From positions 7,386 through 71,385 of the forward strand of contig JASNZL010000005.1 in assembly GCA_048499675.1 (NCBI GenBank): a stretch of 64,000 nt of DNA, written 5' to 3'. The translations under genes were made by a program, and so were the position numbers. The notes under the pieces were generated by a model. It saw nothing but the letters and a program-made list of their open reading frames with translations. It did no database searches and was not told the DNA's origin. Each line of letters starts with the position of its first letter. Within the stretch, counting starts at the first letter, position 1. The DNA is from Candidatus Zambryskiibacteriota bacterium (lineage in GTDB: Bacteria > Patescibacteriota > Minisyncoccia > Phycocordibacterales > WO2-35-19). Shown here one piece after another: positions 22,410-58,819 of the stretch.

Positions 22410-23693
22410 TTTAATGTAATAGCCTTATTTTTGAGAATAATCTTGCTTTTTATTGATCCAAGAAATAGCCTCTTCTCTTCAATTGATCCTTGAGTCAGGA
22501 TATACACGACGTATTGTTTTTGATCAAAATCTACTTTGCTTAATTCTGGCTTAACTCCATAGAATTGCTGCTGGAATTTCTTGGCTCGCTCTCGCTCTTC
22601 GTTAAACCTCTTAAGGATAAAATTGTCGTCCAACTCCAGACCACTAATCTGTTCAATTAGTTGTTTGATAATTTCTTCTTCTCGTACATACCCACATTTG
22701 CAATCCCGATTTCTTGATCTTGAGCACCCATAGTATATGTATTTTGCTACTCCACCCTTTGACTAGTTTTTTAAACTTCTCATCAGCAGTAATACCAGAA
22801 CCACAAAGTCCACAAGACATCATTTTTGTAAAAGCGAATTCTTTGTTCTCCGATCGAATAATTGATCTGGTTGTTTGTTCCTGAACTTGATCAAACAATT
22901 CTTTGGTAATTAAAGGTGTGTGTTTACCTGTATACCAATTATTGCTTTTAACAGGATATTCAAATACGCCATAATAAAAAGGGTTCTGTAAAAGTTGAAA
23001 AATATTTCTAAGACTTAACCCCTTATTACCAGTTACACTTTTAAAATTGAGATCAAATTTAAGCCAATTGTATACTTTTCTTCCACTCCATTTTTCGTAA
23101 GCCACTTTCTCAAACATTTTCTTAATAATAGGTCCTCGTTCTGGATCGATAAGCGTCTCACATTTTCTATCCATTCGTTTTTCTTTGAAATATCCAGTTG
23201 GAGCAGGGGCGGGCCATAGTCCAAGTTCACATTTAGTCTTAAGTCCACGCTTCACATTTATACTCTTGTTGTCATTTTCGAGCTTTGCTTGAAAGCCTAG
23301 TATCATAAGAAGGAACTTCTCGTTGGGGTTATTAGTAAAGCTCTGACTGTATGTGCGTATCTCGACTAGCTTTTGTTGATCGAGTAGGTCTACCACTGCT
23401 CCTAAGTCACCGGCATTCCTAGCCAATCTATCTGGATGCCAAACTAATATTCCGTTAAATTTACCTTCTCGTATATCTAGTAATAGTTTGTTATATACAG
23501 GTCGCTGACCACAGTCTTTGGCAGAGTGAGACTCTCTATACATATCTACAATATTGAGATTGTCTCTTTGAGCGATTGTTAGCATCTCCTTGATCTGGCT
23601 GTCGATGCTCATCGCCTGGCGCTCATCCGACTCGGTACTCTTTCTTGCATAGAGGCAGTACCTCAGTTCCTCTCTTGATATGTTTGGTCCCAT
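22406..23693 (-). pseudogene. Large serine recombinase (phage-integrase type) with an apparent frameshift near 22755-22765.
   Basis: N-terminal catalytic motif LYARKSTESDE (Ser nucleophile) and a recombinase domain. The zinc ribbon CGLCGSGITADEKFKKLVKG continues in another frame as GVAKYIYYGCSRSRNRDCKCGYVREEE plus a coiled-coil tail (ORF 22406-22633). Confidence 0.65.
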
Positions 23694-24174
23694 ATATGTT
23701 GTGTGATTATTTTTGTTAATTAATTCCTCGACACAACACAAGGAATGACGCGACCCTTTTGGGGAGTCCAGACCCCGCTGTTGGTAACTTTTGCTTCGCA
23801 AGTCTCTATTACTAAGCTAGAACACAAGGGCCAGCAGGCAGTCTTGGGTCATCGGTTACTACGGTTATCGATGTACTCAAGATTCAAGTCCAATCCGGAT
23901 TTGGCACTGGCGGGAAACCTGTACGCAGGCAGAGGCTCCGATTTCCTGATCTCCACGGAGAGGCGGAGAAACAGAAGCCCTTCCCGCCAGAACCAAGTCC
24001 AGACCAAACGACTTCATATCACCCTAAATTACAGTTTGAGTGAGCACCAAAACATAACTCGTCTTTTGATTTGGTCCTTGTGTGAAGCAATAAATTGTGT
24101 TATGGTGGTGCCGATGAGAAATCCATGGCGGCTTTCTCAAAACAGTTCATTCACAATCAAAAAAGGAGTCAATC

Positions 24175-24897
24175 ATGTCCAGTAAAGGTCTCTTGATGCT
24201 CGAATTGGAGTCCCGACTCCTTTGCGAGTACGATGATGGGAATTTCTGCTCGCTGATATTCGGTCTCAGCCGTAACACAGTGCTTGAACTTCCTTCAGGA
24301 TATACCCATTTCGGCCTACTGGTCGAAGGTCGCGCGGCGGTCTCGCACAATGGAAGAATTCGTCATCTGTATGATGGTGACTTCTTCTCTGTTGTCGGAC
24401 CTGCCAAGGTCATCAGTAAGGGAATGGGAATTGTCACTTCAGCCAAAGGTTACCGAGGATTCAATGTCTTCGGTGGCCCATTGGAGGAAAAAGGCAAGCT
24501 CCGCTACATCAACGGTTGCACCGACACTTTGTTGGTACCTCCGGTGCGGAAAGGTGATCCTTGTCTGAATCACCTGCATTTCCCGCCACACTCTGTGCAG
24601 ACACCCCACACGCACCCTTCGGTACGCGTTAACATCGTCTACCGCGGATCGGGTGTATGCCTGGTGCCAGAAGACGAGAAAAAGCGGGTACCGCTCGTGA
24701 AAGGTTACGTCTTCATCATGAAGACGAATACTTTACACAGCTTCGACACTGAAGATGAAAGCATGGACGTCATCACTTTCCATCCCGATAGTGATGTCGG
24801 AATGACTGATGACGATCATCCCATGGTCAATCGCACGATTGTTGATGGGGTAAGTGCGAAATTCATCGACCACATCAGAACAGGAGGTGGAGAATGA
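24175..24897 (+). CDS. Cupin-domain protein.
   Basis: HLHFPPHSVQTPHTHP-type cupin motif; GC-rich gene with SD AAAGGAG. Confidence 0.4.
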   Translation: MSSKGLLMLELESRLLCEYDDGNFCSLIFGLSRNTVLELPSGYTHFGLLVEGRAAVSHNGRIRHLYDGDFFSVVGPAKVISKGMGIVTSAKGYRGFNVFGGPLEEKGKLRYINGCTDTLLVPPVRKGDPCLNHLHFPPHSVQTPHTHPSVRVNIVYRGSGVCLVPEDEKKRVPLVKGYVFIMKTNTLHSFDTEDESMDVITFHPDSDVGMTDDDHPMVNRTIVDGVSAKFIDHIRTGGGE

Positions 24898-25592
24898 AAA
24901 CACTGCACGTGAGCGCTGGTGGCCGCGGTGAACGTATCGCGGCCTACATCTCATCCATCCGACCGTTTCTCCCGAAGCACCTCTTGCCAATTCCTACGGA
25001 AGGCAGGACAATCTTGGGTGAGATAATCTTCAAAGCACATACGCATTTCGAGGAAATCACGGTCTGGTCAAGCAAGGAGACCTATCCTCGGATTGCGTTG
25101 GCGCTCGAATATCTGATGCCTGTCGGGGTGCGAGTGGATGCGAAAATGACTGGTCCGCTAGGGCCGATGGTACGGAGGTTGCTCGCAACGAGACAGCGCA
25201 CGTTCGGTTGTGCCGGCGACTTCTATTGCGATTTTTCTTGGAAGGAGTTCGAGAAATTCCATGAAGCTCATGGACTCCCGATCTCAATCCTCGTCGCAAA
25301 GAGTGTTCCGGCTCCCGGTGGCGCACGTTTTCATCTGAACGGTGGCGACATCACAGGGTGGGAACGAGTCGAAAAGACTACCAAGGACGATAGGATCAAC
25401 ATTGGCTGTTACATCATTGATCCCGTTCCCGAGGTCGTCGCCTGTCTTGAGGCAATGAAGAAACACAAAGAAGATCCATTCTTTGACATCTTCATACCCA
25501 AGAAGCTCGTTGCCGGATATGACCCAGGCTTATCCGGCTTCAACGTCAATGTTGCGGAAGTGTATGAACATCTCCTGCACGTCTTGGCGTAG
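24894..25592 (+). CDS. Nucleotidyltransferase-family protein (sugar-phosphate/MobA-like NTP transferase).
   Basis: N-terminal LHVSAGGRGERI, G-G-x-G-x-R-like; 4-nt overlap with the cupin gene. Confidence 0.4.
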   Translation: MKTLHVSAGGRGERIAAYISSIRPFLPKHLLPIPTEGRTILGEIIFKAHTHFEEITVWSSKETYPRIALALEYLMPVGVRVDAKMTGPLGPMVRRLLATRQRTFGCAGDFYCDFSWKEFEKFHEAHGLPISILVAKSVPAPGGARFHLNGGDITGWERVEKTTKDDRINIGCYIIDPVPEVVACLEAMKKHKEDPFFDIFIPKKLVAGYDPGLSGFNVNVAEVYEHLLHVLA

Positions 25593-25646
25593 GGAGGGCG
25601 TAGAAGCATGCGTCCTCCCTTTTCCTAACTCAAAACCAAAGGAGCA

Positions 25647-26102
25647 ATGATGAAAGTAATAACTGAGTGCACGATCAAACTCGCCAAGAGGCGAAAGATC
25701 CAAGACGTCATCAGGGCGAGTAAATACGATGAGGTTAATTTCCTCATCACGGAAGGAGCCAGTAAAAAAAGACTGTCTCTTAGTGACGAGGAAGTTGGCG
25801 AGCGGACGATCGTTGTCGTCAGCACTGATGACGAAAGTATCAGTTCAGGCGATGTGCTTTCCGAAGCACGGCGCATGGGATTGGTTCGTCCAAGCTATGG
25901 AGATGCCTTCCTTATCGGGGAGCAACATCCTGACGAGCAGATTGCAGGGCCGATCGTCTTTCTCCACGATCCGCAGTACATGTGGAGCGGACACTCCTTC
26001 AATCTTGTTCTCGACGTAAGTCGGAAGGGGCGGATCATCAGTTTCGTATCTTCCGGCGGTTGGTGGCATAGTGGTTTTCGCTTCGCTTTCAGAAAGAAGT
26101 GA
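25647..26102 (+). CDS. Hypothetical protein.
   Basis: SD AAAGGAG; followed by a strong terminator hairpin at 26139-26176. Confidence 0.45.
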   Translation: MMKVITECTIKLAKRRKIQDVIRASKYDEVNFLITEGASKKRLSLSDEEVGERTIVVVSTDDESISSGDVLSEARRMGLVRPSYGDAFLIGEQHPDEQIAGPIVFLHDPQYMWSGHSFNLVLDVSRKGRIISFVSSGGWWHSGFRFAFRKK

Positions 26103-29174: not shown

Positions 29175-29271
29175 GAGACATTTATGATTTTATCAAATTT
29201 ACGCTTAGTCTCATAATTCACCAAACAGATCAAGCCTCCATCTCCAAAAAAGATTGTGCTAAAATACACCC

Positions 29272-30625: not shown

Positions 30626-31450
30626 TTATTCATTCTTACTTACACTTTCCCACCACTTCTCGAGCTTCGGCTTGTATCCTTCTTTCCACGATATCGGGAT
30701 CACGAAATCGTCCGACCACTTTTGGTATTCGCCGTGCAGGGTTTTTTCAAAAAGCTGTCTGTAGCAACTCATCCTATCGTCGATATTTTGGCTCGCGGAA
30801 TAACGGTGAAAAAGCGATCGGAAATCCGGGTCATTTTTCTCAAGGTACTTTATCGCCGTCTTTTCCCCACGCCATGGAATATCTCGGAAAGAGAAATAAG
30901 CGGTAATGAGTTCCATGGTGCTATAGAGCAGGCGCATTTCCAAAGCTTCCTGATATAACGTGTCATTCGAGTCATAGTAGCGAGAATTCGCGATGAAGTT
31001 GTAATTGATTTTGATCCAAAAGTCTTTTTTCTCCGCATCGGGAACTTTCTGCATCGGTGGTTTGCTCTTGATCTCCTGCTTCAAGTTTGCGAGTAGATTT
31101 TCATAGTCATATTCCACTTTGCCTTTCGAGAGCCATTCCAAAAACATTCCCTCAAAAGCATTGGAGAGAATTTCCTTTTTATCCCCCAATTTTTGGACAA
31201 AATCAGTATCAAAAAAGAATATATCGGCGAAATGATTTTCCGCCATTGTGTAAACCGATTTTATATCCTCGCTGTTCCTGTCAAGAACAACGACAAGGTC
31301 GATGTCACTCGAAGGAGAAAGGGATGTCGCGGTGGTACCGGTGGTGAAGATCCCCCTCACTCTTGGCGAGGCTTTCAATGTATCTATGAGTTTTTCTAAT
31401 TTCATCGTTCTGCTTATTTTATCAAATTTCCATTCAGTCTCATAATCCAT
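30626..31450 (-). CDS. Aminoglycoside-adenylyltransferase-like nucleotidyltransferase (ANT/AadA-like).
   Basis: GIFTTGTTATSLSPSSDIDLVVVL. The start is placed at the ATG overlapping the upstream stop (ATGGATTATGA). Confidence 0.5.
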   Translation of the reverse strand: MDYETEWKFDKISRTMKLEKLIDTLKASPRVRGIFTTGTTATSLSPSSDIDLVVVLDRNSEDIKSVYTMAENHFADIFFFDTDFVQKLGDKKEILSNAFEGMFLEWLSKGKVEYDYENLLANLKQEIKSKPPMQKVPDAEKKDFWIKINYNFIANSRYYDSNDTLYQEALEMRLLYSTMELITAYFSFRDIPWRGEKTAIKYLEKNDPDFRSLFHRYSASQNIDDRMSCYRQLFEKTLHGEYQKWSDDFVIPISWKEGYKPKLEKWWESVSKNE

Positions 31451-31760
31451 CAAATGGATCGAAATCAGCCATCTCCTCCGTGAGCTTCTCCATCTCCACG
31501 AGGACTTTGCGATAGATGGTTTTGATGCGTTCTTTGTCCGTTCCCTCAATCACAGCGTCGACATCTTCATCGGGCACAAACGAGGCGAGCGATATGTATG
31601 AACCCACCAGCAAGCGAACGCGCTCCTTGATGGCGCGCTTCAGCCGCTTCTTTGATTCGGGAAGGCGGGAAATGCGGTTAAGCAAAACCTTATCCGGCCT
31701 TTCGTGGAATCGGTAATGCTGCGCCTCTTTGATGACTTCCTCGATGTCGTCTCCCTGCAT
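31440..31760 (-). CDS. Small helical hypothetical protein, translationally coupled to the nucleotidyltransferase.
   Basis: 106-aa ORF; ATGA-type overlap. Confidence 0.35.
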   Translation of the reverse strand: MQGDDIEEVIKEAQHYRFHERPDKVLLNRISRLPESKKRLKRAIKERVRLLVGSYISLASFVPDEDVDAVIEGTDKERIKTIYRKVLVEMEKLTEEMADFDPFDGL

Positions 31761-49433: not shown

Positions 49434-50204
49434 ATGTATTTACTATTTGACATCGGGAGGACAAAGACGAGGGTTGCTTATTATGAAGGTGGAGATGGTT
49501 TTGAAGAACCTATTGTTTTTGAAACATCGAGTGATTTTGATACGCAAATTGAATTGTTTGTTTCAAATGTGCAAATTGTTGCAAAAGGGAGAGAAATAAA
49601 AGAAGTAGCTGGAGGAATGACAAGAGCGCTCTTTGGTGGTGACTATGAAAATTTTAAAAACAAACTAAGCGAGAAGATGGACGCGGAAGTTTTGGTAGAA
49701 AATGATTCTGCAGTAGTGGGTTTGGGAGAAGCAAATTTTGGTGCAGGGCGGGGTTTTCCTATTGTTGCATACATAACTGTGTCTACTGGTGTTGGTGGGG
49801 CAAGAATTGTAGATGGGGATATCGACGAGAGAGCGATTGGGTTTGAACCCGGCAAACAAATTATAGACATAGTGGATGGGGAAGGTGTTGTTCTAGAAAA
49901 TTTGATTTCTGGCAAGGCGCTACAAGAAAGAACAGGTAAACACCCAAAAGAAATAACAGATTCAGGCGTTTGGGACTTGCATGCAAAATATTTGGCAATT
50001 GGACTGAATAATATTATTGTTGAATGGTCGCCCAATGTTGTTGTACTTGGTGGCTCAATGATTACGGGAGATCCAGTAATACCTCTTAATAAGACCGAAG
50101 ATTATCTGAAAGAAATACTAAAAGTATATCCAGAAATTCCAGTTATAAAAAAAGCAGAGCTCGGTGATTTTGGCGGACTCTATGGTGCAATGAAATTAAT
50201 TTAA
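49434..50204 (+). CDS. ROK-family sugar kinase (glucokinase-like).
   Basis: LFDIGRTKTRVA (ATP-binding), VENDSAVVGLGE, VSTGVGGARIV. Confidence 0.55.
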   Translation: MYLLFDIGRTKTRVAYYEGGDGFEEPIVFETSSDFDTQIELFVSNVQIVAKGREIKEVAGGMTRALFGGDYENFKNKLSEKMDAEVLVENDSAVVGLGEANFGAGRGFPIVAYITVSTGVGGARIVDGDIDERAIGFEPGKQIIDIVDGEGVVLENLISGKALQERTGKHPKEITDSGVWDLHAKYLAIGLNNIIVEWSPNVVVLGGSMITGDPVIPLNKTEDYLKEILKVYPEIPVIKKAELGDFGGLYGAMKLI

Positions 50205-50326
50205 AAAGGTGTGTATAACTCCTATTTGACTATTTTGCTGTAGGGTGTAAATTTATACCAGACTGTCCTGCAGACATGATTGATTCATGTACTGTTACAA
50301 TTAATGTGAACCGCAGGAGGAAACTC

Positions 50327-50404
50327 ATGCCGGCAAACCACTCGCCCCCGGTAGCGATCACCGCCAACCACCGGAACAGCCAGTCCGAGCAGAAGACGAC
50401 CTGA
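50327..50404 (+). CDS. Putative 25-codon small ORF (MPANHSPPVAITANHRNSQSEQKTT) in a GC-rich islet.
   Basis: Perfect SD AGGAGG 6 nt upstream; followed by a terminator at 50428-50460. Confidence 0.25.
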   Translation: MPANHSPPVAITANHRNSQSEQKTT

Positions 50405-50427
50405 AACCGCGCCATGGTCAAAGGTCA

Positions 50428-50460
50428 AAGGGCACCCCCGTGGGCGCCCTTTTAATTTTT
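50428..50460 (+). terminator. Rho-independent terminator.
   Basis: AAGGGCacccccgtgggcGCCCTT followed by TTAATTTTT. Confidence 0.5.
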
Positions 50461-50517
50461 CTATTTTTAATTAATACTTGTTAACTTTTTACTTTATAAA
50501 CTTTTTAACTTATTTAT

Positions 50518-50754
50518 ATGGGCATAAAAGATTTTTTTATGAGAAAAATGATTGAGTCAAAAATGAAAGATGTTCCAAAGGAGGAACAAGAAAGAATTTT
50601 GAATTTGATTCAAAAGAATCCAGAGCTATTTAAAAAAATAGCTGAGGAGATACAAGTGGAGATGGGTAAAGGAAAAGACCAGATGGAAGCTTCTATGGAA
50701 GTTATGATGAAGTATAAGGATGAGGTGGAAAGGGTAATGAAAGATACGAAGTAA
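50518..50754 (+). CDS. Small hypothetical protein.
   Basis: 78-aa ORF preceded by the ACTTTATAAACTTTTTAACTTAT motif. Confidence 0.35.
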   Translation: MGIKDFFMRKMIESKMKDVPKEEQERILNLIQKNPELFKKIAEEIQVEMGKGKDQMEASMEVMMKYKDEVERVMKDTK

Positions 50755-50856
50755 CGAATAGGTTAACGAATTGATACGAATGACACGGATTAAGAACGAT
50801 ATAAGTGGTTGAAAGTTGTGGTTTGGGGGTATATTATTCAGATAGAGAGGTGAGCT

Positions 50857-51105
50857 ATGCTTGCGTCAACCGAGATTTATTTCTTGCAGAACTTGGTACT
50901 TTTTGCAAATGGTGGAGTTGTTACTCCTGATCAAATTAAAAAGGATTGGGACACGATTCTCCGTCACGAAAGAAAAGGATCAAATCAAGTCATCGGTGAA
51001 CTCCAAGAGGAATCGGATCGGCTCCATCATGGGATTCAAATCAAACCGCTTTTGAAAAAGGCGGGAGTAAGGATTCCACCTACCTTCGCAGAAGTGTTTG
51101 GGTAA
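50857..51105 (+). CDS. Small hypothetical protein.
   Basis: 82-aa ORF with SD GAGAGGTGAG. Confidence 0.3.
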   Translation: MLASTEIYFLQNLVLFANGGVVTPDQIKKDWDTILRHERKGSNQVIGELQEESDRLHHGIQIKPLLKKAGVRIPPTFAEVFG

Positions 51106-52045
51106 TAATCAAAAACCCGGGCGTCGACTAAGTGTCGCGCTCGGGTGTTTTGTTCATCTCGGGATGAGGGAACTTACATCGGGAGCTTCCAAACCGTTTG
51201 TGCCGACTTGTGGAATCAAGGCACTTGCAGTGTTGAATAACTCAACCAATGTTTTCTCTCCTGCCGAGAAAACTTCGGACATAAGGAACTTGAGGATAAG
51301 AATCATTAACCCAAGTCCCAACGCGCGTCTAATCATACGATTAAATATTGCGGGGGCTGTATGCGAAGCTGACGAAGCTTTGCATGAGAGTTAATGACTC
51401 TCCTCCCTCCGGATACTGTCCCCACACTTTGTTGGGACCAATATCCGGAGGCTTTCCTTATATCTTTTTCAATTTACCTATATTAATTATAGCAAATTAC
51501 AACACAAAAATCAACTTGTTATTTACAAAAAATGTGATTAAATCTTGATAGAGGCTTAACACAATGAGTATTCTTGATGAACATTTCAAAGAAGAACAAG
51601 AAAAGACAAAGAAGTGTCTTGAGGGTTTAATGCGGTTATTATCGCATGACACTTCTCCTACCCGAAGACAACTCGCAATCCTTCTCAGACAACAAGCGGA
51701 CATGATTCACAACCAAGCTGTAACCGATTCCATTCTCTTTATGAGTCAGCCAATTGTGAAAAAAGGTGGGGAAGGGAAAGATTAGTGCTCAGAATGAAAA
51801 AGGGGCAATGAGAAAGTTAGGTTCCTTGAGTAATGGAGAGCTAAGGAGGACTCGGATTCGTTTCTATCTGGTCCGAGACTCATCTCTTTTTACCCCACTA
51901 CAACATATAAGTGAGCAGGATTATTTCTACGTTGTAAACCTGGTACGTGCCGTTACGTTCAATCGTGACGGCTTTCTTTTGTCTAATTAAGTCTTTTTGC
52001 AAGTCATAATGAATAATGTTAGCTTGATTTAAGAGGTGAACATTG

Positions 52046-52759
52046 ATGTTTAATAGAGATATTATTCTTGTGCGCCATGGTGAATCTATAGGCAACACTA
52101 TGTCTCAAAATGAGAGAGCTCTGCTCGACATTCCTAACCATAAATACCAACTAACTCCAAGAGGGCACGAGCAGGCGAGGTTGGCTGGCGAATACCTTGG
52201 GTCGTTTGTTGATCAGCAGAGAAATTATCGAATTGTTAGAGTGTTTCAATCGACTTTTGTTCGGACACAGGAGACACTTCGAGTAATCATGGAACAACTC
52301 GGATTGAGAATCAATCCTATTACCGACGCGCGACTCGATGAAAAGTGGGACGGAATCTTTCATGAACTCTCAAAGAGTGAGATTGAAATGAGGTATCCTG
52401 AGCAAATTCGACAGAGAGAGCGTTCTGGATATTATCACTACCGAGCTCCGGGCGGAGAAAGTTGTCCTGATGTTGAACTACGAATTCGCAGTTTCATTGA
52501 AGGAGAACTTTTGGCAAGCAATCAGAAATCATCTGAGGATATTTGTGGGTGTGATTTGATTGTGTGTCATGGGAGATGGTTACAAGTGTGTAATAAACTC
52601 CTGCGACGACTTACTGTCGAGGAATTTTTGCACAATATTAAACATGCAGAGATGCCCAACTGTTCCATTACGGTTTACAGTTTTAACGGTAAACTACTCA
52701 TGGATTGTGGGAATCCATGGGAAGGAAAACTTGAAGATGGGAAAAACACCTTTGCTTAG
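52046..52759 (+). CDS. Histidine phosphatase (phosphoglycerate-mutase-like) family protein.
   Basis: ILVRHGESIGN (RHG motif); SD AAGAGGTG. Confidence 0.65.
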   Translation: MFNRDIILVRHGESIGNTMSQNERALLDIPNHKYQLTPRGHEQARLAGEYLGSFVDQQRNYRIVRVFQSTFVRTQETLRVIMEQLGLRINPITDARLDEKWDGIFHELSKSEIEMRYPEQIRQRERSGYYHYRAPGGESCPDVELRIRSFIEGELLASNQKSSEDICGCDLIVCHGRWLQVCNKLLRRLTVEEFLHNIKHAEMPNCSITVYSFNGKLLMDCGNPWEGKLEDGKNTFA

Positions 52760-52856
52760 TCATGGGTTTGGGGCGATCAGAGATGGTCGCCCTTTATTTA
52801 TAGGATTTACGTTTAAATTCGGATAAAAAATATGAGATAATGATTAGTAAAGATAT

Positions 52857-53702
52857 ATGAATTTTTTTAAGAAAAATAAATGCAGAAAATTTTTGTCTGG
52901 GATAGGGATTATTTTGATAGTTTTTGTTCTTTGGCAAATTTTTGATAAACCCTCTATGGATGGGGATTGGCAGGAGCAACTCGAGATTGCTTCTATTGCA
53001 GAATTTGATGGAGATTTGGTTACTGTGAGAAATGTCCGAAACTTCCGTTATTACCCAGAAGAAAAAGATACTCATCCAAACTATTACGACCGACAATATG
53101 ATATGTCTAAAGTAAAACAGGTTTGGTATACATCAGAACCGTTTAATGAGAACAGATTGGCTGGACATACATATGTAACTTTTGAATTTGAGAACGGCGA
53201 TTTTTTGGCGATTACTATTGAGGCAAGAAAAAGAAAAGACCAATCATACAGCATTTGGAAAGGAATGTTGCACACGTATCCTCTAATATATATTGCTGCT
53301 GATGAACGAGACATAACACTCCTGAGGGCAAATTTAAGAAAAGACAAAGTATATGTTTATCCGGTAAAATTGTCAGATTCCAAAAATGGTGGGGTCTTAT
53401 TAAAAAATATGCTGATAGAAATGAATGATCTATTAGAAAATCCAAGGTGGTACAATACAATTTTTTCAAACTGTACTTCTGAAATAGCAAAACATGTAAA
53501 TAAAATAACTCCAAAAAGAATATCAATTTTTTCTTGGCAATTGGTTCTCACGGCATCGGCAGACGAGCTTGCGCTGGAGCACGGACTTCTCGATACGGAG
53601 CTTCCTATAAAAGAAGCTAGAGAAAAATTTAATATCAATGAAGCATCTATGAGAATAGGGGACTCACCAAACTATTCCGCTCTAATTAGAAAATTTAAAT
53701 AA
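52857..53702 (+). CDS. Membrane-anchored hypothetical protein (possibly DUF4105-like).
   Basis: N-terminal TM GIGIILIVFVLWQIF; FSNCTSE block. Confidence 0.4.
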   Translation: MNFFKKNKCRKFLSGIGIILIVFVLWQIFDKPSMDGDWQEQLEIASIAEFDGDLVTVRNVRNFRYYPEEKDTHPNYYDRQYDMSKVKQVWYTSEPFNENRLAGHTYVTFEFENGDFLAITIEARKRKDQSYSIWKGMLHTYPLIYIAADERDITLLRANLRKDKVYVYPVKLSDSKNGGVLLKNMLIEMNDLLENPRWYNTIFSNCTSEIAKHVNKITPKRISIFSWQLVLTASADELALEHGLLDTELPIKEAREKFNINEASMRIGDSPNYSALIRKFK

Positions 53703-54101
53703 AAATTTTGAGCGGTTCTTTGTTGTGTAAATTATAATTACTTCAGGTAATAGTGGTGTTGTTGGTGACCATGTGTCTGGAGTATAACTCCCAAACACTC
53801 TTGTGCTTGCAAACAAAAACTTTCTTGATTAACTTCAGGGAAGTTTTTGTGTTATAAATATGGAATGGCAAATATATCTGTGGGCACGGGCGGAACACAA
53901 ACCAACTTTTTGAAAACCCTCTGTTTTCCAAGCAAATCCCATTCTTTTTTGAGGTAAAATTACCACCTCCACTACGAAGGGGAATAGACTACGGCATCAC
54001 TAAAGACAACCGGTGGGTCTTTACAGTCGACAAATCGGGTAAGGTATAGAAAAAGCCACCCGTTGATGTAATCGCGGGGCGGCTTGGGAAGGACGGTGCA
54101 T

Positions 54102-54647
54102 TTACTTCTCCTGCTGAACTTCTTGAAGGAGGGTCATGCCTTGGTATCGGTGCCAGAAGACCTCTCTTGTCTCGAGGCCGGTTCCACCTTCAGGAATATC
54201 CTCTTTGCTGATCTTCTCCTCTCCGCTGAAGTGATCGAAGGTGCCGATCCAGTTGTTTGTATACTCCAAATGTGGAACGACGGCTGATTTGTCGTGAAGT
54301 TTCCCCCTTCCGCCGTAGAACGTGCGGCTCAGATAGGCTTTGGTGAGGACCACCTTCAGAAGGCCTATGATTTCTCCGTCGTCATTTTCGCACCAGCCGT
54401 GATACTGCATGATCCACGCCGGAACGAAGACGGACGAACCCTCAGGCTTGATATAGATGACCGTTTGGCCACCACTTTGTTCGCCGTTGGTGAAGTAGGT
54501 GTCGATGTAGAGGAAGTTTCCTTTCTCGTATCGATATACCTTTGACTTGGGCAGGCCTTCGATGGAAGTTTTGGTCCCGTGACCAGCATACGTCTCTCGA
54601 GCTGCCTCGAAGAAAAACTCCTGTAATTCCAGGGACAATTGATGCAT
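54102..54647 (-). CDS. Hypothetical protein (DUF5680-like).
   Basis: SD AAGGAG; repeated Y..G / GEE..I blocks. Confidence 0.4.
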   Translation of the reverse strand: MHQLSLELQEFFFEAARETYAGHGTKTSIEGLPKSKVYRYEKGNFLYIDTYFTNGEQSGGQTVIYIKPEGSSVFVPAWIMQYHGWCENDDGEIIGLLKVVLTKAYLSRTFYGGRGKLHDKSAVVPHLEYTNNWIGTFDHFSGEEKISKEDIPEGGTGLETREVFWHRYQGMTLLQEVQQEK

Positions 54648-54746
54648 TCGGACTCCTTTTCCGATGGCATACTAGCAAAAATCGATTGCTATTGCAAGGT
54701 TTGATAAAATATGGTTAAATAGAAAACAGGAAAGGAGTTCTTCAAC

Positions 54747-55322
54747 ATGTTTCTGAATGTTCTGTACGCCTGCTTTATCGGTTTCTTTTTGGGAATGATG
54801 TTTGTCAGACCCGAAGGAACCAACCTGTTTATCGTTGCCGTGATCAGTGTCTTGTTCCACGCTATCGTATTTTTGATGGTGAGGTTCATGATGGACACAA
54901 AGAAGGCACTCGTTACGACGGGCATCACGCTGTCAGTTATGGTCTCAACGATTGGCCTAGCTTTAATTGGTCAGGTGGTCGGCAACAAGTACCACAACGA
55001 TCCGGTATTCCACGCCAAGGTCAACGCCTATGTGTTCATGGATGCTCGGTATCAGGCACAACTTGATTCGGAGTGGTTTGAAAAGAGAAGAGCAAGAATT
55101 GCTCGCTACACTCTCTATGTCCAAGGGATGAGATCTATGTGTGGCGACCCAGTTCACTATCGCCAAGTTGTCGGCACATACAACCGTGTGATCGACGAAT
55201 ACAACACAGTGATCGTCAGCTCGATGGTCGGCAGTCAGTATGCCGAGCCGGTGAAGCAACTATTCGTTCCGCAATTCAACGATCAGCTCGTTCCGTGTGG
55301 AGCAGTGTTCAAACCGATTTAG
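54747..55322 (+). CDS. Membrane protein, 3-4 TM.
   Basis: SD AAGGAG; hydrophobic segments. Confidence 0.45.
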   Translation: MFLNVLYACFIGFFLGMMFVRPEGTNLFIVAVISVLFHAIVFLMVRFMMDTKKALVTTGITLSVMVSTIGLALIGQVVGNKYHNDPVFHAKVNAYVFMDARYQAQLDSEWFEKRRARIARYTLYVQGMRSMCGDPVHYRQVVGTYNRVIDEYNTVIVSSMVGSQYAEPVKQLFVPQFNDQLVPCGAVFKPI

Positions 55323-55331
55323 GAGAAGAAG

Positions 55332-55598
55332 ATGCTCACGTTCAAAGTTTGCAACAACGATCTCGGGCTTCCCGATGAAATCTGTCCGAGCAATAAACCA
55401 CACGGACATCTATGGGATGGAGTGGGACGAGAAATGCCAGTCTCTCTGTATCCAATCCTTACAAACAAAACCATCGCCCTCCAGATCCTATTCGAATTAA
55501 GCGACTTGGTTCTGGCCGGCGGAGCTCTGGGATCTAACCCCAACATTGATCGGGTCAAGAACCAGATAGCGGAGTGTAATCTGCCCGAGGAGGGATAA
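55332..55598 (+). CDS. Small hypothetical protein.
   Basis: SD AGGAG; operon with the flanking genes. Confidence 0.4.
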   Translation: MLTFKVCNNDLGLPDEICPSNKPHGHLWDGVGREMPVSLYPILTNKTIALQILFELSDLVLAGGALGSNPNIDRVKNQIAECNLPEEG

Positions 55599-55874
55599 AT
55601 GACCTTCTTGGTTGGATTGGAAACGCCGTCTCGCGGATCCTATACCCTCGGCTTTATCAAAGTTGAGGACGAGGAAACTCCGAAGAAGACAAGACAGTCA
55701 GCACAAAACAAAGTAGTTGAAGCATTAGTTGCTGCCGGTTTTCCACGAGAGAAGATCGGCATACAAGTTACAGACAATAGTTCCCTTGAGATTGGACTTC
55801 ATCGAGTGGTGATTGTTCCGATCAAAGAGTTCGACGGCCAAGTGGCTTCGGCTCTGGCCGCCTTACTTCGGTAG
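55599..55874 (+). CDS. Small hypothetical protein.
   Basis: SD GAGGAGGG; TAAATG junction with the previous gene. Confidence 0.4.
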   Translation: MTFLVGLETPSRGSYTLGFIKVEDEETPKKTRQSAQNKVVEALVAAGFPREKIGIQVTDNSSLEIGLHRVVIVPIKEFDGQVASALAALLR

Positions 55875-55916
55875 GGCGGTCTTTCTTTTTACCTAAATTT
55901 TCATTACACTTTTAAT

Positions 55917-56432
55917 ATGAGAATTTTAATTACAGGAATATCGGGAACTGGGAAAACGACTACTTTAGCAGAGCTACAAAAGCACGGATATGCTGTTATT
56001 GATCTTGATGCTACTGGCATCTGCAAATGGAAGAATAAAGAGACACAAGAGGTAACAGAATATGGTCCTGATGGGAGAGATTTGGAGTGGCTTAATTTAC
56101 ACGGCTGGTATTGCGATATACCTACACTTCAAAAATTACTTTCCTGTATACGAGAGGACAAGGATGTTTTTGTGGCTGCTATTGCAGAGAATATAGAGGA
56201 AGTGGCAAAAGAATTTAATAGGGTATTTGTTCTTAATACTAGCGATGAGGTGATTAGAGAACGATTAAATACTCGGACCAATAATCACTTTGCTAAAAAA
56301 GAAGAGGAACAGAATTTTATTTTTGAGCAGAGCAGATATTTGATGTCGAAGCTCAAGGATTTTATAGAAGTAAATGTAGATAAAACTCCCGCCGAAATCA
56401 CCGATTATATTTTAAACAATTTGAAAAAATAA
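55917..56432 (+). CDS. P-loop kinase (AAA_33/adenylate-kinase-like).
   Basis: MRILITGISGTGKTT Walker A. Confidence 0.5.
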   Translation: MRILITGISGTGKTTTLAELQKHGYAVIDLDATGICKWKNKETQEVTEYGPDGRDLEWLNLHGWYCDIPTLQKLLSCIREDKDVFVAAIAENIEEVAKEFNRVFVLNTSDEVIRERLNTRTNNHFAKKEEEQNFIFEQSRYLMSKLKDFIEVNVDKTPAEITDYILNNLKK

Positions 56433-56623
56433 TCATGGTCATAGATATAGAACTTACATTAAATAGATTTGGGCTTGGTAAAATTGCAGAGAATAAATTT
56501 CAACTTTTCTTTCTGAGATTTAGTAAATGGAAAATTCCCGGCAAACACTCAATCTCTTTTGAAATAAATTGGAAGACAAAAGACAGAGTGGAAGAAAAAC
56601 AAAAAATAAAGTAGATTGTAGAA

Positions 56624-57640
56624 ATGGCAAATATATCTGTGGGAATCGTGGGGTTACCAAACGTCGGGAAATCGACGCTTTTTAACGCACTTACCAAAAA
56701 GAGTGTGCCTGCTGAGAATTATCCGTTTTGCACAATTGACCCGAGTGTTGGGATAGTTCCCGTACCGGATCCTCGGCTAGAGAAGTTAAATGAATTTTCT
56801 AAGTCGGAGAAAAAAGTTCCGGCCGTCGTTGAATTTACTGATATAGCTGGACTTGTAAAAGGAGCATCAGAAGGGGAAGGACTCGGTAACCAATTCCTTG
56901 CACACATAAGAGAAGTTGATGCGATTGCACAGGTAGTAAGAATTTTTGAAGACAAAGATATTTTGCATGTGGCTGGAAGTGTTGATCCGCTTTTTGATAT
57001 AGAGACAATAAACCTAGAACTTATTTTGGCTGATTTGCAGACAGTTAATAAAAGGTTGGGAACTTTGGAAAAGGATTTGAAAAGAGGTGACAAAGAAGCA
57101 GTTATATTAAGTGAGGCTCTTAAAAAAATAAAAGATAATTTGGAAAATCAAAAATTTGCAAACGACTTGAGTTTTAACGAAAAAGAAATACCTCTTGTTA
57201 AACAAATGCAACTCCTCACAATGAAGCCGATTTTTTATGTACTTAATATTTCTTCTATAAGTGAAAATTTTAATATTGAAAATTTACTTGAAAATTCTAA
57301 ATTGAAAATTGAAAATTTTGTATTGATTGATCCTGTTTTTGAAAAGGGATTTGAAGAGCTCATAAAAAAAGCATACGAAACGCTTGATTTAATAACTTTT
57401 TTCACTACCGGTAAAGATGAGACAAGGGGATGGACAACAAAAAGAGATTCTACTGCTCCAGAGGCGGGGACAGCAATCCACACTGATTTTAGAGATAAAT
57501 TTATAAGAGCAGAAATTATAGAATGGGATAAGCTTTTGGAAGCTGGAAGTTACGCAAATGCTCGCGAAAAAGGCCTCCTCCGCACCGAGGGCAAAGAATA
57601 CATCGTCAAAGACGGTGACGTGATTGAGTTTAAGGTGTAG
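56624..57640 (+). CDS. ychF: Ribosome-binding ATPase YchF (Obg-like ATPase).
   Basis: GIVGLPNVGKSTLFNALT, DIAGLVKGASEGEGLGNQFL, and a C-terminal TGS-like YIVKDGDV. Confidence 0.9.
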   Translation: MANISVGIVGLPNVGKSTLFNALTKKSVPAENYPFCTIDPSVGIVPVPDPRLEKLNEFSKSEKKVPAVVEFTDIAGLVKGASEGEGLGNQFLAHIREVDAIAQVVRIFEDKDILHVAGSVDPLFDIETINLELILADLQTVNKRLGTLEKDLKRGDKEAVILSEALKKIKDNLENQKFANDLSFNEKEIPLVKQMQLLTMKPIFYVLNISSISENFNIENLLENSKLKIENFVLIDPVFEKGFEELIKKAYETLDLITFFTTGKDETRGWTTKRDSTAPEAGTAIHTDFRDKFIRAEIIEWDKLLEAGSYANAREKGLLRTEGKEYIVKDGDVIEFKV

Positions 57641-57663: not shown

Positions 57664-58107
57664 ATGACAATAATTTACGAAACTGAAAACTTTGTAATCG
57701 AATCACATGAAAAGCCAGAAGTAGATAGGCTCGAAGGTGGTCATATTAAGATAAGTCCCAAAGTTGATGTTGAGGATAGAACCAAACTATCTCCACGACA
57801 AGCGATCGAACTTATGAGACTTACCATGGTTGCCGGAGAAGCTCTAGTTAAAATGATGGCTTCAATTGGAGTAGAGATTGGAAGAATCAATTATCAGGAT
57901 AATGGTAATTGGAAACCATCTCTACATGTCCATCTTTACGGAAGAGCCAAAAGTGCAGTAATGCAAAAATTTGGCGATCCAATTATCCCTGGCCACAAAG
58001 AAGAATACGAACCCTTAACTGATTCCGATATTCAGATCTTAAAGGCAGAAGTTGAGGCTAAATCTAGTGAAGAAAAGTATTCAGATGCGGCTTGGGGGTT
58101 GAAATAG
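57664..58107 (+). CDS. HIT-family-like protein.
   Basis: GGHIKISPK and SLHVHLYGR (His-phi-His-phi). Confidence 0.4.
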   Translation: MTIIYETENFVIESHEKPEVDRLEGGHIKISPKVDVEDRTKLSPRQAIELMRLTMVAGEALVKMMASIGVEIGRINYQDNGNWKPSLHVHLYGRAKSAVMQKFGDPIIPGHKEEYEPLTDSDIQILKAEVEAKSSEEKYSDAAWGLK

Positions 58108-58493
58108 AAGACGGAGGTCTCATAGAGTTTAAAATATAGTACCGCGAGGTATTATATTTTAAACTCGAAGATGCCGAAATTTGCCCACAAAGCAAATTTC
58201 GGCGTGGAGAATACGGTCAAAAGAAAGCCTGTGATCCTATCAAGATTACAGGCCTTTGGGCTGAATATTGCACAGTGCGTTCATCTCCGCCGTATGGGGA
58301 AAAGGCAAAAACCACGGGTTCATTGATTCAGCACCCAAGCAATACTCCCTGACGCCTTTATACTTCGGTTGCCCGAAACTATATTAACCGAAAGTATTAG
58401 AAGATGAAAGTACTATAGAATTTAAAATTTAGACAATAATAAAGACCCCTTTACCTTTGCGCTTTTGCATTGATATTGGGGTCTGCCGAAATC

Positions 58494-58563
58494 CGAAGTC
58501 GGAAGTCGGAAGTCGGAAGTCGGAAGTCGGAAGTCGGAAGTCGGAAGTCGGAAGTCGGAAGTC
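58494..58563. repeat. Heptanucleotide microsatellite (GGAAGTC)x~10.
   Basis: Perfect tandem copies read directly; about 255 nt upstream of the next gene. Confidence 0.9.
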
Positions 58564-58819
58564 TTTCTTAATTATACACAATATCGTTTATTTGTCAAAG
58601 TTGCTCAGTTATTAAATTCCAACTCAATCAATTTGAGCGAACAGATGATGGCTGAGAGGTTTCTTTTTTTGAACATTTAGAATTTTTGATTTGTTTAGGA
58701 TTTCTGATTTAGAATTTAGAATTTTATTCTAAAATATGGTATAATAGTCATATTAAAATTAATCGAAGTTGGGTCGCACTCCAATCGGCGTATCGTGCGA
58801 CATGATCTCGCTAAATCAT

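Follow-up and report, generated by a model that had tools for sequence, protein, structure and literature searches.

Elements such as phiC31, Bxb1 and A118 use phage-type serine integrases, which are large serine recombinases (LSRs). The SSV-type "suicidal" integrases (SSV1, pTN3 and pT26-2) are archaeal tyrosine recombinases that target tRNA genes (PMC8371274, PMC7253208), and self-splitting integrases were stated to be exclusive to archaea in a 2021 review (PMC8371274). For Actinomycetota, pipolins that encode an LSR have been reported to use ychF as their target (PMC11551731), and the attB of the Streptococcus pneumoniae prophage PPH005 lies between a DUF951 gene and ychF (PMC8637289). Neither integrases nor ychF are mentioned in a study of genomic islands in Patescibacteria, and our literature search turned up no study that connects serine recombinases with Patescibacteria in the manner described below. 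Here we analyzed a 64,000-nt stretch of contig JASNZL010000005.1 of a Candidatus Zambryskiibacteriota bacterium, which belongs to the Patescibacteria (Paceibacteria), (the window; position 1 is its first letter), in which a 2.76-kb island is inserted at the 5' end of ychF. We consider it very probable that this island is the degraded remnant of an element inserted by an LSR into codon 7 of ychF. Related and metagenome loci are denoted by L-numbers and LSR proteins by P-numbers.

The ychF-associated elements to which the island is related resemble the known LSR elements in that their integrase combines Resolvase, Recombinase, zinc-ribbon and coiled-coil regions, and in their short att sites, conserved protein-coding target, circular free form and hybrid attL and attR sites. 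They differ in that attP lies inside the integrase open reading frame (ORF) and, because of this, integration would remove the C-terminal ∼35–55 residues of the enzyme. Further, ychF is not disrupted but gains its start from the overlapping integrase frame, the hosts are Patescibacteria, and the copy in the window is without an integrase body. With the SSV type the elements share a recombination site within the integrase gene, two gene fragments that border the integrated element and the accumulation of remnants ("gene capture"), whereas here the enzyme is a serine recombinase, the hosts are bacteria, the target is the ychF 5' end and a short C-terminal tail alone is removed; we regard the relation as one of analogy, not of membership. 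Prophage PPH005 is similar in lying directly upstream of ychF with its integrase adjoining that gene but differs in its intergenic att site, in its phylum and in that neither integrase splitting nor replacement of the ychF start has been reported for it. Like the cis-mobilisable elements (CIMEs), the island in the window is flanked by att sites, lacks recombinase and transfer genes of its own and carries accessory genes; unlike theirs, its att sites stem from a split-integrase LSR system, and its mobilisation is putative. Judged from the sequences, the system appears to be a self-splitting serine integrase of bacteria in which overlapping coding also gives the target gene a replacement start, and it thereby differs from the known LSR and SSV systems.

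The ychF start repeat and the recombinase tail beside it

The sequence AATGGCAAATATATCTGTGGG, which corresponds to the ychF start and about 6.7 codons, occurs exactly twice in the window, on the + strand at 53864–53884 and 56623–56643, 2759 bp apart. As the preliminary description of this DNA had stated, such a direct repeat is beyond chance: the expected number of matches in shuffled sequence was 0, and no other high-complexity exact repeat of this kind is present in the 64-kb window. The right copy leads into an intact ychF (56624–57640, + strand; TIGR00092, E = 7.6e-118), the target gene. The left copy is, again as described, an orphan, host-derived 5' fragment of ychF (ATG and MANISVG), the B arm of the putative attL, and GC-rich DNA follows it (GC ∼0.50 across 53900–55900 versus ∼0.35 in the flanks). 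A Logan assembly of SRR21762701 is 100% identical to window 49747–57453, and the arrangement of the island is therefore not the artifact of one assembler.

Directly after the left copy, positions 53882–54049 (+ strand) read GHGRNTNQLFENPLFSKQIPFFFEVKLPPPLRRGIDYGITKDNRWVFTVDKSGKV up to a stop codon, in a frame that is −1 to that of the ychF ATG and lacks a start codon of its own; the frame is open over 53858–54049. This tail corresponds to the last ∼55 codons of an LSR gene. The C-terminal residues of the intact LSRs P0165 (residues 532–567), P0175 and P0200 match window 53876–54004 with 50–64% identity (tblastn, E = 5e-5 to 2e-4). The tail ORF has no Pfam match, and a word-indexed search with the tail segment returned short ORFs only, but an exhaustive profile search with the tail ORF retrieved 125 cluster representatives. 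The long representatives end in this segment, which is preceded by a recombinase zinc ribbon, a coiled coil and the motif ...VVGTxxxLQVYGYIPIxSNINVFTxxRHG...; one of these proteins, P0052, matches Zn_ribbon_recom (E = 1.5e-7). Because long proteins carry the segment behind a zinc ribbon and a coiled coil, we assigned the tail to the LSRs. The earlier statement that no integrase lies between the repeats thus holds for a complete gene, but the 3' end of an integrase gene stands directly after the left copy.

The junction itself is marked by the motif GGCAYG-N4-GAACACAA, which begins at window 53883, directly after the ychF fragment. Across 1.2 Mb of loci it was found at this position and in L002, L021 and L028 only, always upstream of ychF and co-oriented with it. 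Downstream of the motif, the −1 frame encodes a conserved segment, RHGxNTTRH-(5–15 amino acids)-IPFEFKIKLPxP, which varies at third codon positions and whose antisense frames are closed.

Several other identities of the tail were considered. An independent small gene was dropped, given the missing Pfam match and a disordered AlphaFold2 model (pLDDT 60), as was an antisense gene, the antisense frames being closed. Translation from the ychF ATG by a programmed −1 frameshift or by stop-start coupling was set aside once the LSR parent had been found. A relationship to the YchF C terminus did not stand (hhalign, P = 0.35), and a likeness to Pth or to a dif/Xer site, seen by eye alone, is unsupported. 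Folding of 27 junction regions for a shared RNA structure gave mixed z-scores and no common helix.

A separate observation concerns the reading frames at these junctions. In L028, L181, L193, L199 and other attL copies, a mini-ORF begins at the ychF ATG, and its TGA stop codon shares bases with a GTG, TTG or CTG of the tail frame (GTGA, TTGA or CTGA). Such an overlapping stop was present at 17 of 30 attL junctions versus ∼19% expected, an excess that may be due to chance or be a relic of translational coupling.

Free, integrated and split states in related loci

Related sequences present the element in three states: free, integrated and split. The free form is L221 (JGI Ga0193753_10002291), a sequence of 15,290 bp whose ends repeat each other exactly over 127 bp. 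Because of this repeat, and because three other assemblies are circular permutations of L221 with 100% identity, we take it to be a 15,163-bp circle. No ychF is present on L221. It encodes an intact LSR of 569 amino acids, P0194 (Resolvase, Recombinase and Zn_ribbon_recom), whose gene embeds ATGTCTTCACTATCAATCGG (MSSLSIG) in its 3' end: the LSR frame reads NINVFTINRHGVNITRH..., and the +1 frame reads ATG TCT TCA CTA TCA ATC GG. The same dual coding is found in L182 and L201, and in all three loci the ychF-like core lies ∼35–45 codons before the LSR stop, in an overlapping frame. As a ychF-like start thus lies in the 3' end of the LSR gene, attP is placed inside the integrase gene. Other genes of L221 encode an AAA_25 helicase, a KAP-family NTPase and a 2020-amino acid RHS/YD-repeat protein, and by its gene content L221 appears to be a small extrachromosomal Patescibacteria element with polymorphic-toxin-like cargo.

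A complete integrated copy is present in L205. At its left end (attL), a host ychF fragment (MSLSIG) is fused to an LSR tail; the interior holds 13.4 kb of cargo, in which a primase-helicase-like protein and an excisionase-like helix-turn-helix ORF were read by eye and were not confirmed by a family search. At its right end (attR) lies a 548-amino acid LSR body ending in ...YQNYVEYKTSH, followed by RNCRATKRWEINAF, which is out-of-frame ychF, up to its stop; the ychF ATG lies inside the LSR ORF. The integrase gene is thus partitioned between the two ends of L205, its tail standing at attL and, 13.4 kb away, its body at attR. PF00239, PF07508 and PF13408 were found in P0141 and P0142, whose identity to the L205 LSR is 96% and 84%, so that the Resolvase, Recombinase and zinc-ribbon domains of an LSR are encoded within the family. 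Homologs of the L205 LSR form at least 1700 clusters at E ≤ 1e-30. Among the 60 closest, 55 are without the tail and have C termini that are the −1-frame translation of genuine ychF, and the remaining 5 are intact with the tail. This self-splitting serine-integrase family is widespread in Patescibacteria and apparently undescribed. Since most split copies keep long intact ORFs, the truncated LSR may still be functional in the split state.

These states suggest the following course of integration. In the free circle, attP would lie within the 3' end of the LSR gene, where the same ∼20 nt would encode ...N-V-x-x-x-x-x-R in the LSR frame and ATG with M-x-L-S-I-G, the ychF start, in the +1 frame. 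The LSR gene would be split when attP recombines with ychF at the Gly codon ("GG"). At attL, its last ∼35–55 codons would come to stand at the left end of the element, fused out of frame to the original ychF start of the host, and at attR the LSR body would stand directly upstream of ychF, with the overlapping frame giving a new start codon and N terminus. As the overlapping LSR frame supplies both, ychF would stay intact. The att sites have the corresponding hybrid structure, attL being B+P' and attR being P+B' in the window and in L205, and the free form L221 having P+P'. Going by the sequences, the crossover must fall within "ATCGG" in L205 and at or just before the "GG" of ychF codon 7 in the window.

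Applied to the window, attL would be complete, consisting of the left 21-mer and the LSR tail, its P' arm (53864–54049). At attR there would be ∼30 nt of element arm (the P arm, 56592–56622, + strand, now the ychF upstream region, which in the LSR frame reads ...KTKNKVDCRN-GKYICG) and the right 21-mer as the putative element-borne replacement start, the LSR body having been deleted. Of its own recombinase gene, the island holds the last ∼55 codons only. The 21-nt identity would not be a target duplication but would arise because the ychF start brought by the element matches the host allele. Accordingly worded, the preliminary proposal that the 21-mer is an att repeat keeps its att role but not a target-site duplication or a fixed 21-bp core: elsewhere the overlap of attL and attR ranges from 5 nt (L205) to 43 nt (L028), and some start pairs plainly differ, such as MSSLKIG and MSKTQIG in L174. 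The proposal that the ychF 5' end serves as a site-specific attachment site, with inserted DNA between the repeats, agrees with the same junction in the related loci. By the homology of its ends, the window copy would have arisen by the same reaction.

A second copy of the GC-rich part of the island was found in L084, a 4.3-kb fragment (NCBI contig CAZHJF010000057.1) that encodes a 97%-identical relative of the membrane protein of the window, together with the same DUF5680, 88-amino acid and 91-amino acid genes. L084 35–2099 and window 53864–55910 are 87.6% identical. The homology begins exactly at the left 21-mer, where L084 reads AATGGCAAAcATATCaGTtGG, and ends at ∼55898–55910, just before the kinase gene; in place of the kinase gene and the 59-amino acid ORF, L084 has Lactamase_B, CYTH, Glyoxalase and NUDIX genes. 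The island had been described as one cassette, and although it is inserted DNA, the conserved GC-rich block ends at ∼55910 and the remainder is replaced in L084. Identity along the block is a mosaic, from 98.3% in the membrane-protein gene through 92–93% in the two small ORFs and 78–85% in the LSR-tail region to 76% in the DUF5680 gene, whose products are 77% identical in amino acid sequence; in the 88- and 91-amino acid ORFs (93% and 92% nucleotide identity), the differences lie chiefly at third codon positions. Such a mosaic points to recent recombination inside the cargo. Further, L084 1–34, 5' of its own 21-mer, is ∼80% identical to the sequence upstream of the right copy in the window. 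L084 thus joins a homolog of the attR left arm (P) of the window to a homolog of its attL right arm (P'), an attP-type junction of the kind expected if an element like that in the window had circularised or if two elements stood in tandem.

In 80 ychF loci, the upstream side was searched for duplicates of the start of the respective gene. Duplicates of the ychF start were found in L002 (17 nt, 1695 bp apart), L022 (46 nt, 903 bp apart) and L028 (58 nt at 90% identity, 1669 bp apart), and isolated repeats elsewhere in the scanned loci were rare. The cargo of these three islands differs each time, and no recombinase was among the Pfam families listed for 10 cargo ORFs. A scan of metagenomes with an extended motif yielded 50 loci, ∼38 of which have an ATG and M-x-L-S-I/V-G codons before the motif; where the contigs were long enough, ychF often followed 0.5–13 kb downstream. 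The same motif scan of IMG/VR gave 78 matches, which we take to be chance because no ychF-like fragment adjoins any of them (0 of 78).

Two further observations were made in the scanned loci. In L022 (9095–10043), the 46-nt duplicate encloses a single KilA-N-domain gene, with neither an LSR tail nor the junction motif, and is another kind of insertion at the same site. L005 contains three copies (7354, 7702 and 9918) of a 17–25-nt palindromic sequence, CTTATTCGTACGAATAGG..., one of them ∼80 nt upstream of ychF.

Same-orientation arrays of the ychF fragment with the tail, in 2–3 copies 1.4–5 kb apart, are present in L204, L191, L190, L210, L172 and L187. The unit common to the copies measures about 110–150 nt, with 81–87% identity, and such tandem arrays are as would be expected from repeated integration. 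Scars consisting of the tail only lie upstream of ychF in many Patescibacteria. Pfam matches in the cargo of related islands include NYN, type I and Eco57I-type restriction-modification, AbiEii, GmrSD, DUF3800, NUDIX and radical SAM families; toxin-antitoxin pairs in them were read by eye only. No recombinase was found in 90 cargo ORFs among the 25 commonest of 57 matched Pfam families, nor by phmmer of the cargo with unverified XerD and gamma-delta resolvase query sequences. The arrays resemble integrons in their same-orientation cassettes, a conserved unit of ∼130–150 nt and a fixed chromosomal position, but differ from them in having neither IntI nor attI/attC palindromes and in that their repeats are coding-derived, each made up of a ychF fragment and the tail of an LSR gene. 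An integron model was rejected, as no tyrosine recombinase was seen in or beside the islands (in the 25 commonest of 57 Pfam families over the 90 ORFs, and by phmmer with XerD).

Alternative origins of the island

A number of findings weigh against the origin by LSR-mediated insertion proposed above. The search for an empty ychF site in a close relative was negative; YchF is only 71% identical in the nearest reference genome, and for this reason an empty site is not directly comparable. Exact-protein look-ups with ychF, LnbN, the HIT protein and the kinase matched the same contig or a 1-kb fragment only, and in relatives ychF is followed by the same 316-amino acid membrane protein while the upstream side is not conserved. 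Further, tblastn with seven full LSRs detected nothing besides the tail between 53.8 and 56.7 kb, that is, no LSR body or remnant of more than ∼30 nt in the island; because the island is without an LSR body, the mechanism for the window copy rests on the homology of its ends. The sole LSR gene of the window (22653–23801) is a distant paralog, ∼23% identical. The 21 exact nt shared by attL and attR are far above what an LSR needs and above the 5 nt of L205. The kinase gene and the 59-amino acid ORF share the AT-richness of the host and have no counterpart in the related copy, so part of the interior may have come separately. The circularity of L221 is deduced from assemblies, and LSR-catalyzed recombination at ychF from the arrangement of the sites.

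We weighed these points together with other origins of the island. Competence and pilus genes are common in Patescibacteria (PMC12455944), and DNA could have entered by natural transformation without any recombinase, through homology-facilitated illegitimate recombination or a Campbell-type single crossover, with conserved ychF for anchorage and the short homology provided by the 21-mer. The absence of a recombinase from the island, the variable length of the attL/attR identity (5 to 43 nt) and the mosaic identity of the cassette (76–98%), by which homologous recombination would reshape the cargo, agree with such a route, but it leaves unexplained the constant LSR C-terminal segment joined at the same nucleotide beside the ychF fragment, the free circle with attP inside the LSR gene and the LSR bodies fused to ychF. 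Transformation is in our view very unlikely to have made the junctions; transformation or homologous exchange is a likely source of the later turnover of cargo. A decayed partial duplicate of ychF, into which unrelated genes were inserted later, would account for the identity of the left copy to the ychF start and for a weak "EFKI" likeness of the tail ORF to the YchF C terminus. Past the Gly codon, however, there is no similarity to ychF, the comparison of the tail profile with YchF C termini was not significant (hhalign, P = 0.35), the tail matches LSR C termini instead, and its conservation over lineages with only 50–70% YchF identity would be unexpected for such a pseudogene, which makes this origin highly improbable. 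The preliminary description had also allowed for an assembly artifact, and the metagenomic derivation of the genome and the jump in GC at the left repeat could suggest a chimeric join or a mis-assembled repeat; we give this practically no credence, as the independent Logan contig is 100% identical across both junctions, 21 nt is below usual assembly k-mers and the same architecture recurs in dozens of unrelated assemblies.

A related possibility is that the island is an integrase-less satellite, of a cis-mobilisable-like kind, that still excises and reintegrates with the help of an LSR that an autonomous relative provides in trans. The two att arms are intact, the attP-type junction of L084 is what circularisation of a close integrase-less relative would leave, arrays of tail-bearing cassettes without LSR bodies are common, and the 21-nt identity suggests a recent event. 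Against this, no ychF-type LSR was seen in the 64-kb window, the junction in the 4.3-kb fragment L084 could equally be the joint of two tandem elements, and a recombination directionality factor was not identified. We regard continued movement of this kind as rather unlikely. The earlier suggestion that the island is possibly mobilisable therefore stands as far as its flanking att sites go, but the element is degraded, its recombinase body is lost and mobility would need supply in trans; the time at which the LSR body was lost and the present mobility of the copy are matters of deduction from these remains. Overall, LSR-mediated insertion into ychF codon 7, followed by degradation, remains our preferred account of the island.

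Island cargo, neighboring features and significance

The interior would be cargo of mixed origin, a GC-rich block of DUF5680, membrane and two small proteins joined to an AT-rich kinase and 59-amino acid ORF. The gene inventory given in the preliminary description was borne out by Pfam and the ORF list. A DUF5680-domain protein of 181 amino acids is encoded on the − strand (54102–54647; PF18931, E = 1.8e-7). On the + strand follow a membrane protein of 191 amino acids with three predicted transmembrane helices and a conserved helical C-terminal domain (54747–55322) and the 88- and 91-amino acid ORFs (55332–55598 and 55599–55874), which have no family match. These two ORFs share one frame, with a single TAA and then an ATG between them (55596–55601), and are arranged alike in L084. 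A terminator scan placed a terminator-like hairpin at 55856–55910 (+ strand), the right limit of the block common with L084, and beyond it lie, also on the + strand, the AT-rich AAA_18 P-loop kinase gene (55917–56432; Pfam, E = 1.2e-12) and the AT-rich 59-amino acid ORF (56435–56614) from the ORF list.

The three-gene module of the membrane protein recurs in further genomic contexts, and the family of this protein is tiny (11 clusters); its structural model shows three transmembrane helices and a helical hairpin (pLDDT 68), and an informative structural neighbor of the model was not found. The suggestion that the cargo is a defense or toxin-like module is unsupported: PADLOC, PHROG, Pfam and NCBIfam searches of the island cargo recognized nothing beyond DUF5680 and AAA_18. 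ARAGORN detected no tRNA, and Rfam gave no match over 53600–56700.

Other features were noted in the window. The 3' end of ychF (I-E-F-K-x-stop, ATHGARTTTAARRTNTAG) occurs three times on the + strand (57623–57640, 58122–58139 and 58415–58432; 0 expected), and a HIT-family gene (57664–58107) lies between the first two copies and is absent from relatives, where the 316-amino acid membrane protein directly follows ychF. This looks like a second insertion site at the ychF 3' end; L022 contains a comparable 18-nt repeat. About 11 copies of the heptamer GAAGTCG form a tandem array (58488–58564) in the spacer that separates the HIT gene from the gene of the 316-amino acid membrane protein. The distant LSR paralog at 22653–23801 (− strand) is a 381-amino acid Resolvase and Recombinase protein with an odd, possibly frameshifted C terminus, and it adjoins a second GC-rich block (GC 0.49–0.51; 23800–26100) with three ORFs of 240, 232 and 151 amino acids; the region 22653–26100 is probably another integrated element. 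A 45-nt direct repeat with 82% identity (29187–29231 and 31416–31460, 2229 bp apart) may reflect paralogous genes.

Taken together, the observations allow a wider reading, which we offer tentatively, as possible rather than probable. Patescibacteria would harbor a large, unrecognized family of elements in which integration clips the tail of the integrase and gives ychF a new start; the full-length (episomal) and truncated (integrated) isoforms would differ in activity, so that recombination would run in one direction or the other according to whether the element is free or integrated, an inbuilt switch of directionality; cassettes without an integrase, such as the island in the window, and scars with the tail only would be satellites moved in trans; and the ychF 5' end would be an accretion platform for defense and accessory genes.

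The feature in the window is a relic, and its interest lies in the family that it reveals. The family would be a bacterial, serine-type counterpart to the self-splitting integrases held to be exclusive to archaea, and an example of dual coding in which one stretch would serve as att site, integrase C terminus and start of an essential-type host gene. For annotation, truncated fusions probably account for hundreds of "recombinase family protein" entries of ∼545 amino acids, and severed LSR tails probably for many short "hypothetical proteins". LSRs serve as genome-engineering tools, and a family whose target, the P-loop-proximal 5' end of ychF, is defined and conserved and which has a natural pair of full-length and truncated isoforms could inform the control of directionality. 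To our knowledge, no genetic manipulation of Patescibacteria is possible yet, and the ychF LSR family could yield an integration system for them. For the biology of these bacteria, the ychF site would explain how foreign genes, among them restriction-modification systems, Abi and toxin-antitoxin genes and NYN nucleases, enter their tiny genomes at one fixed spot.

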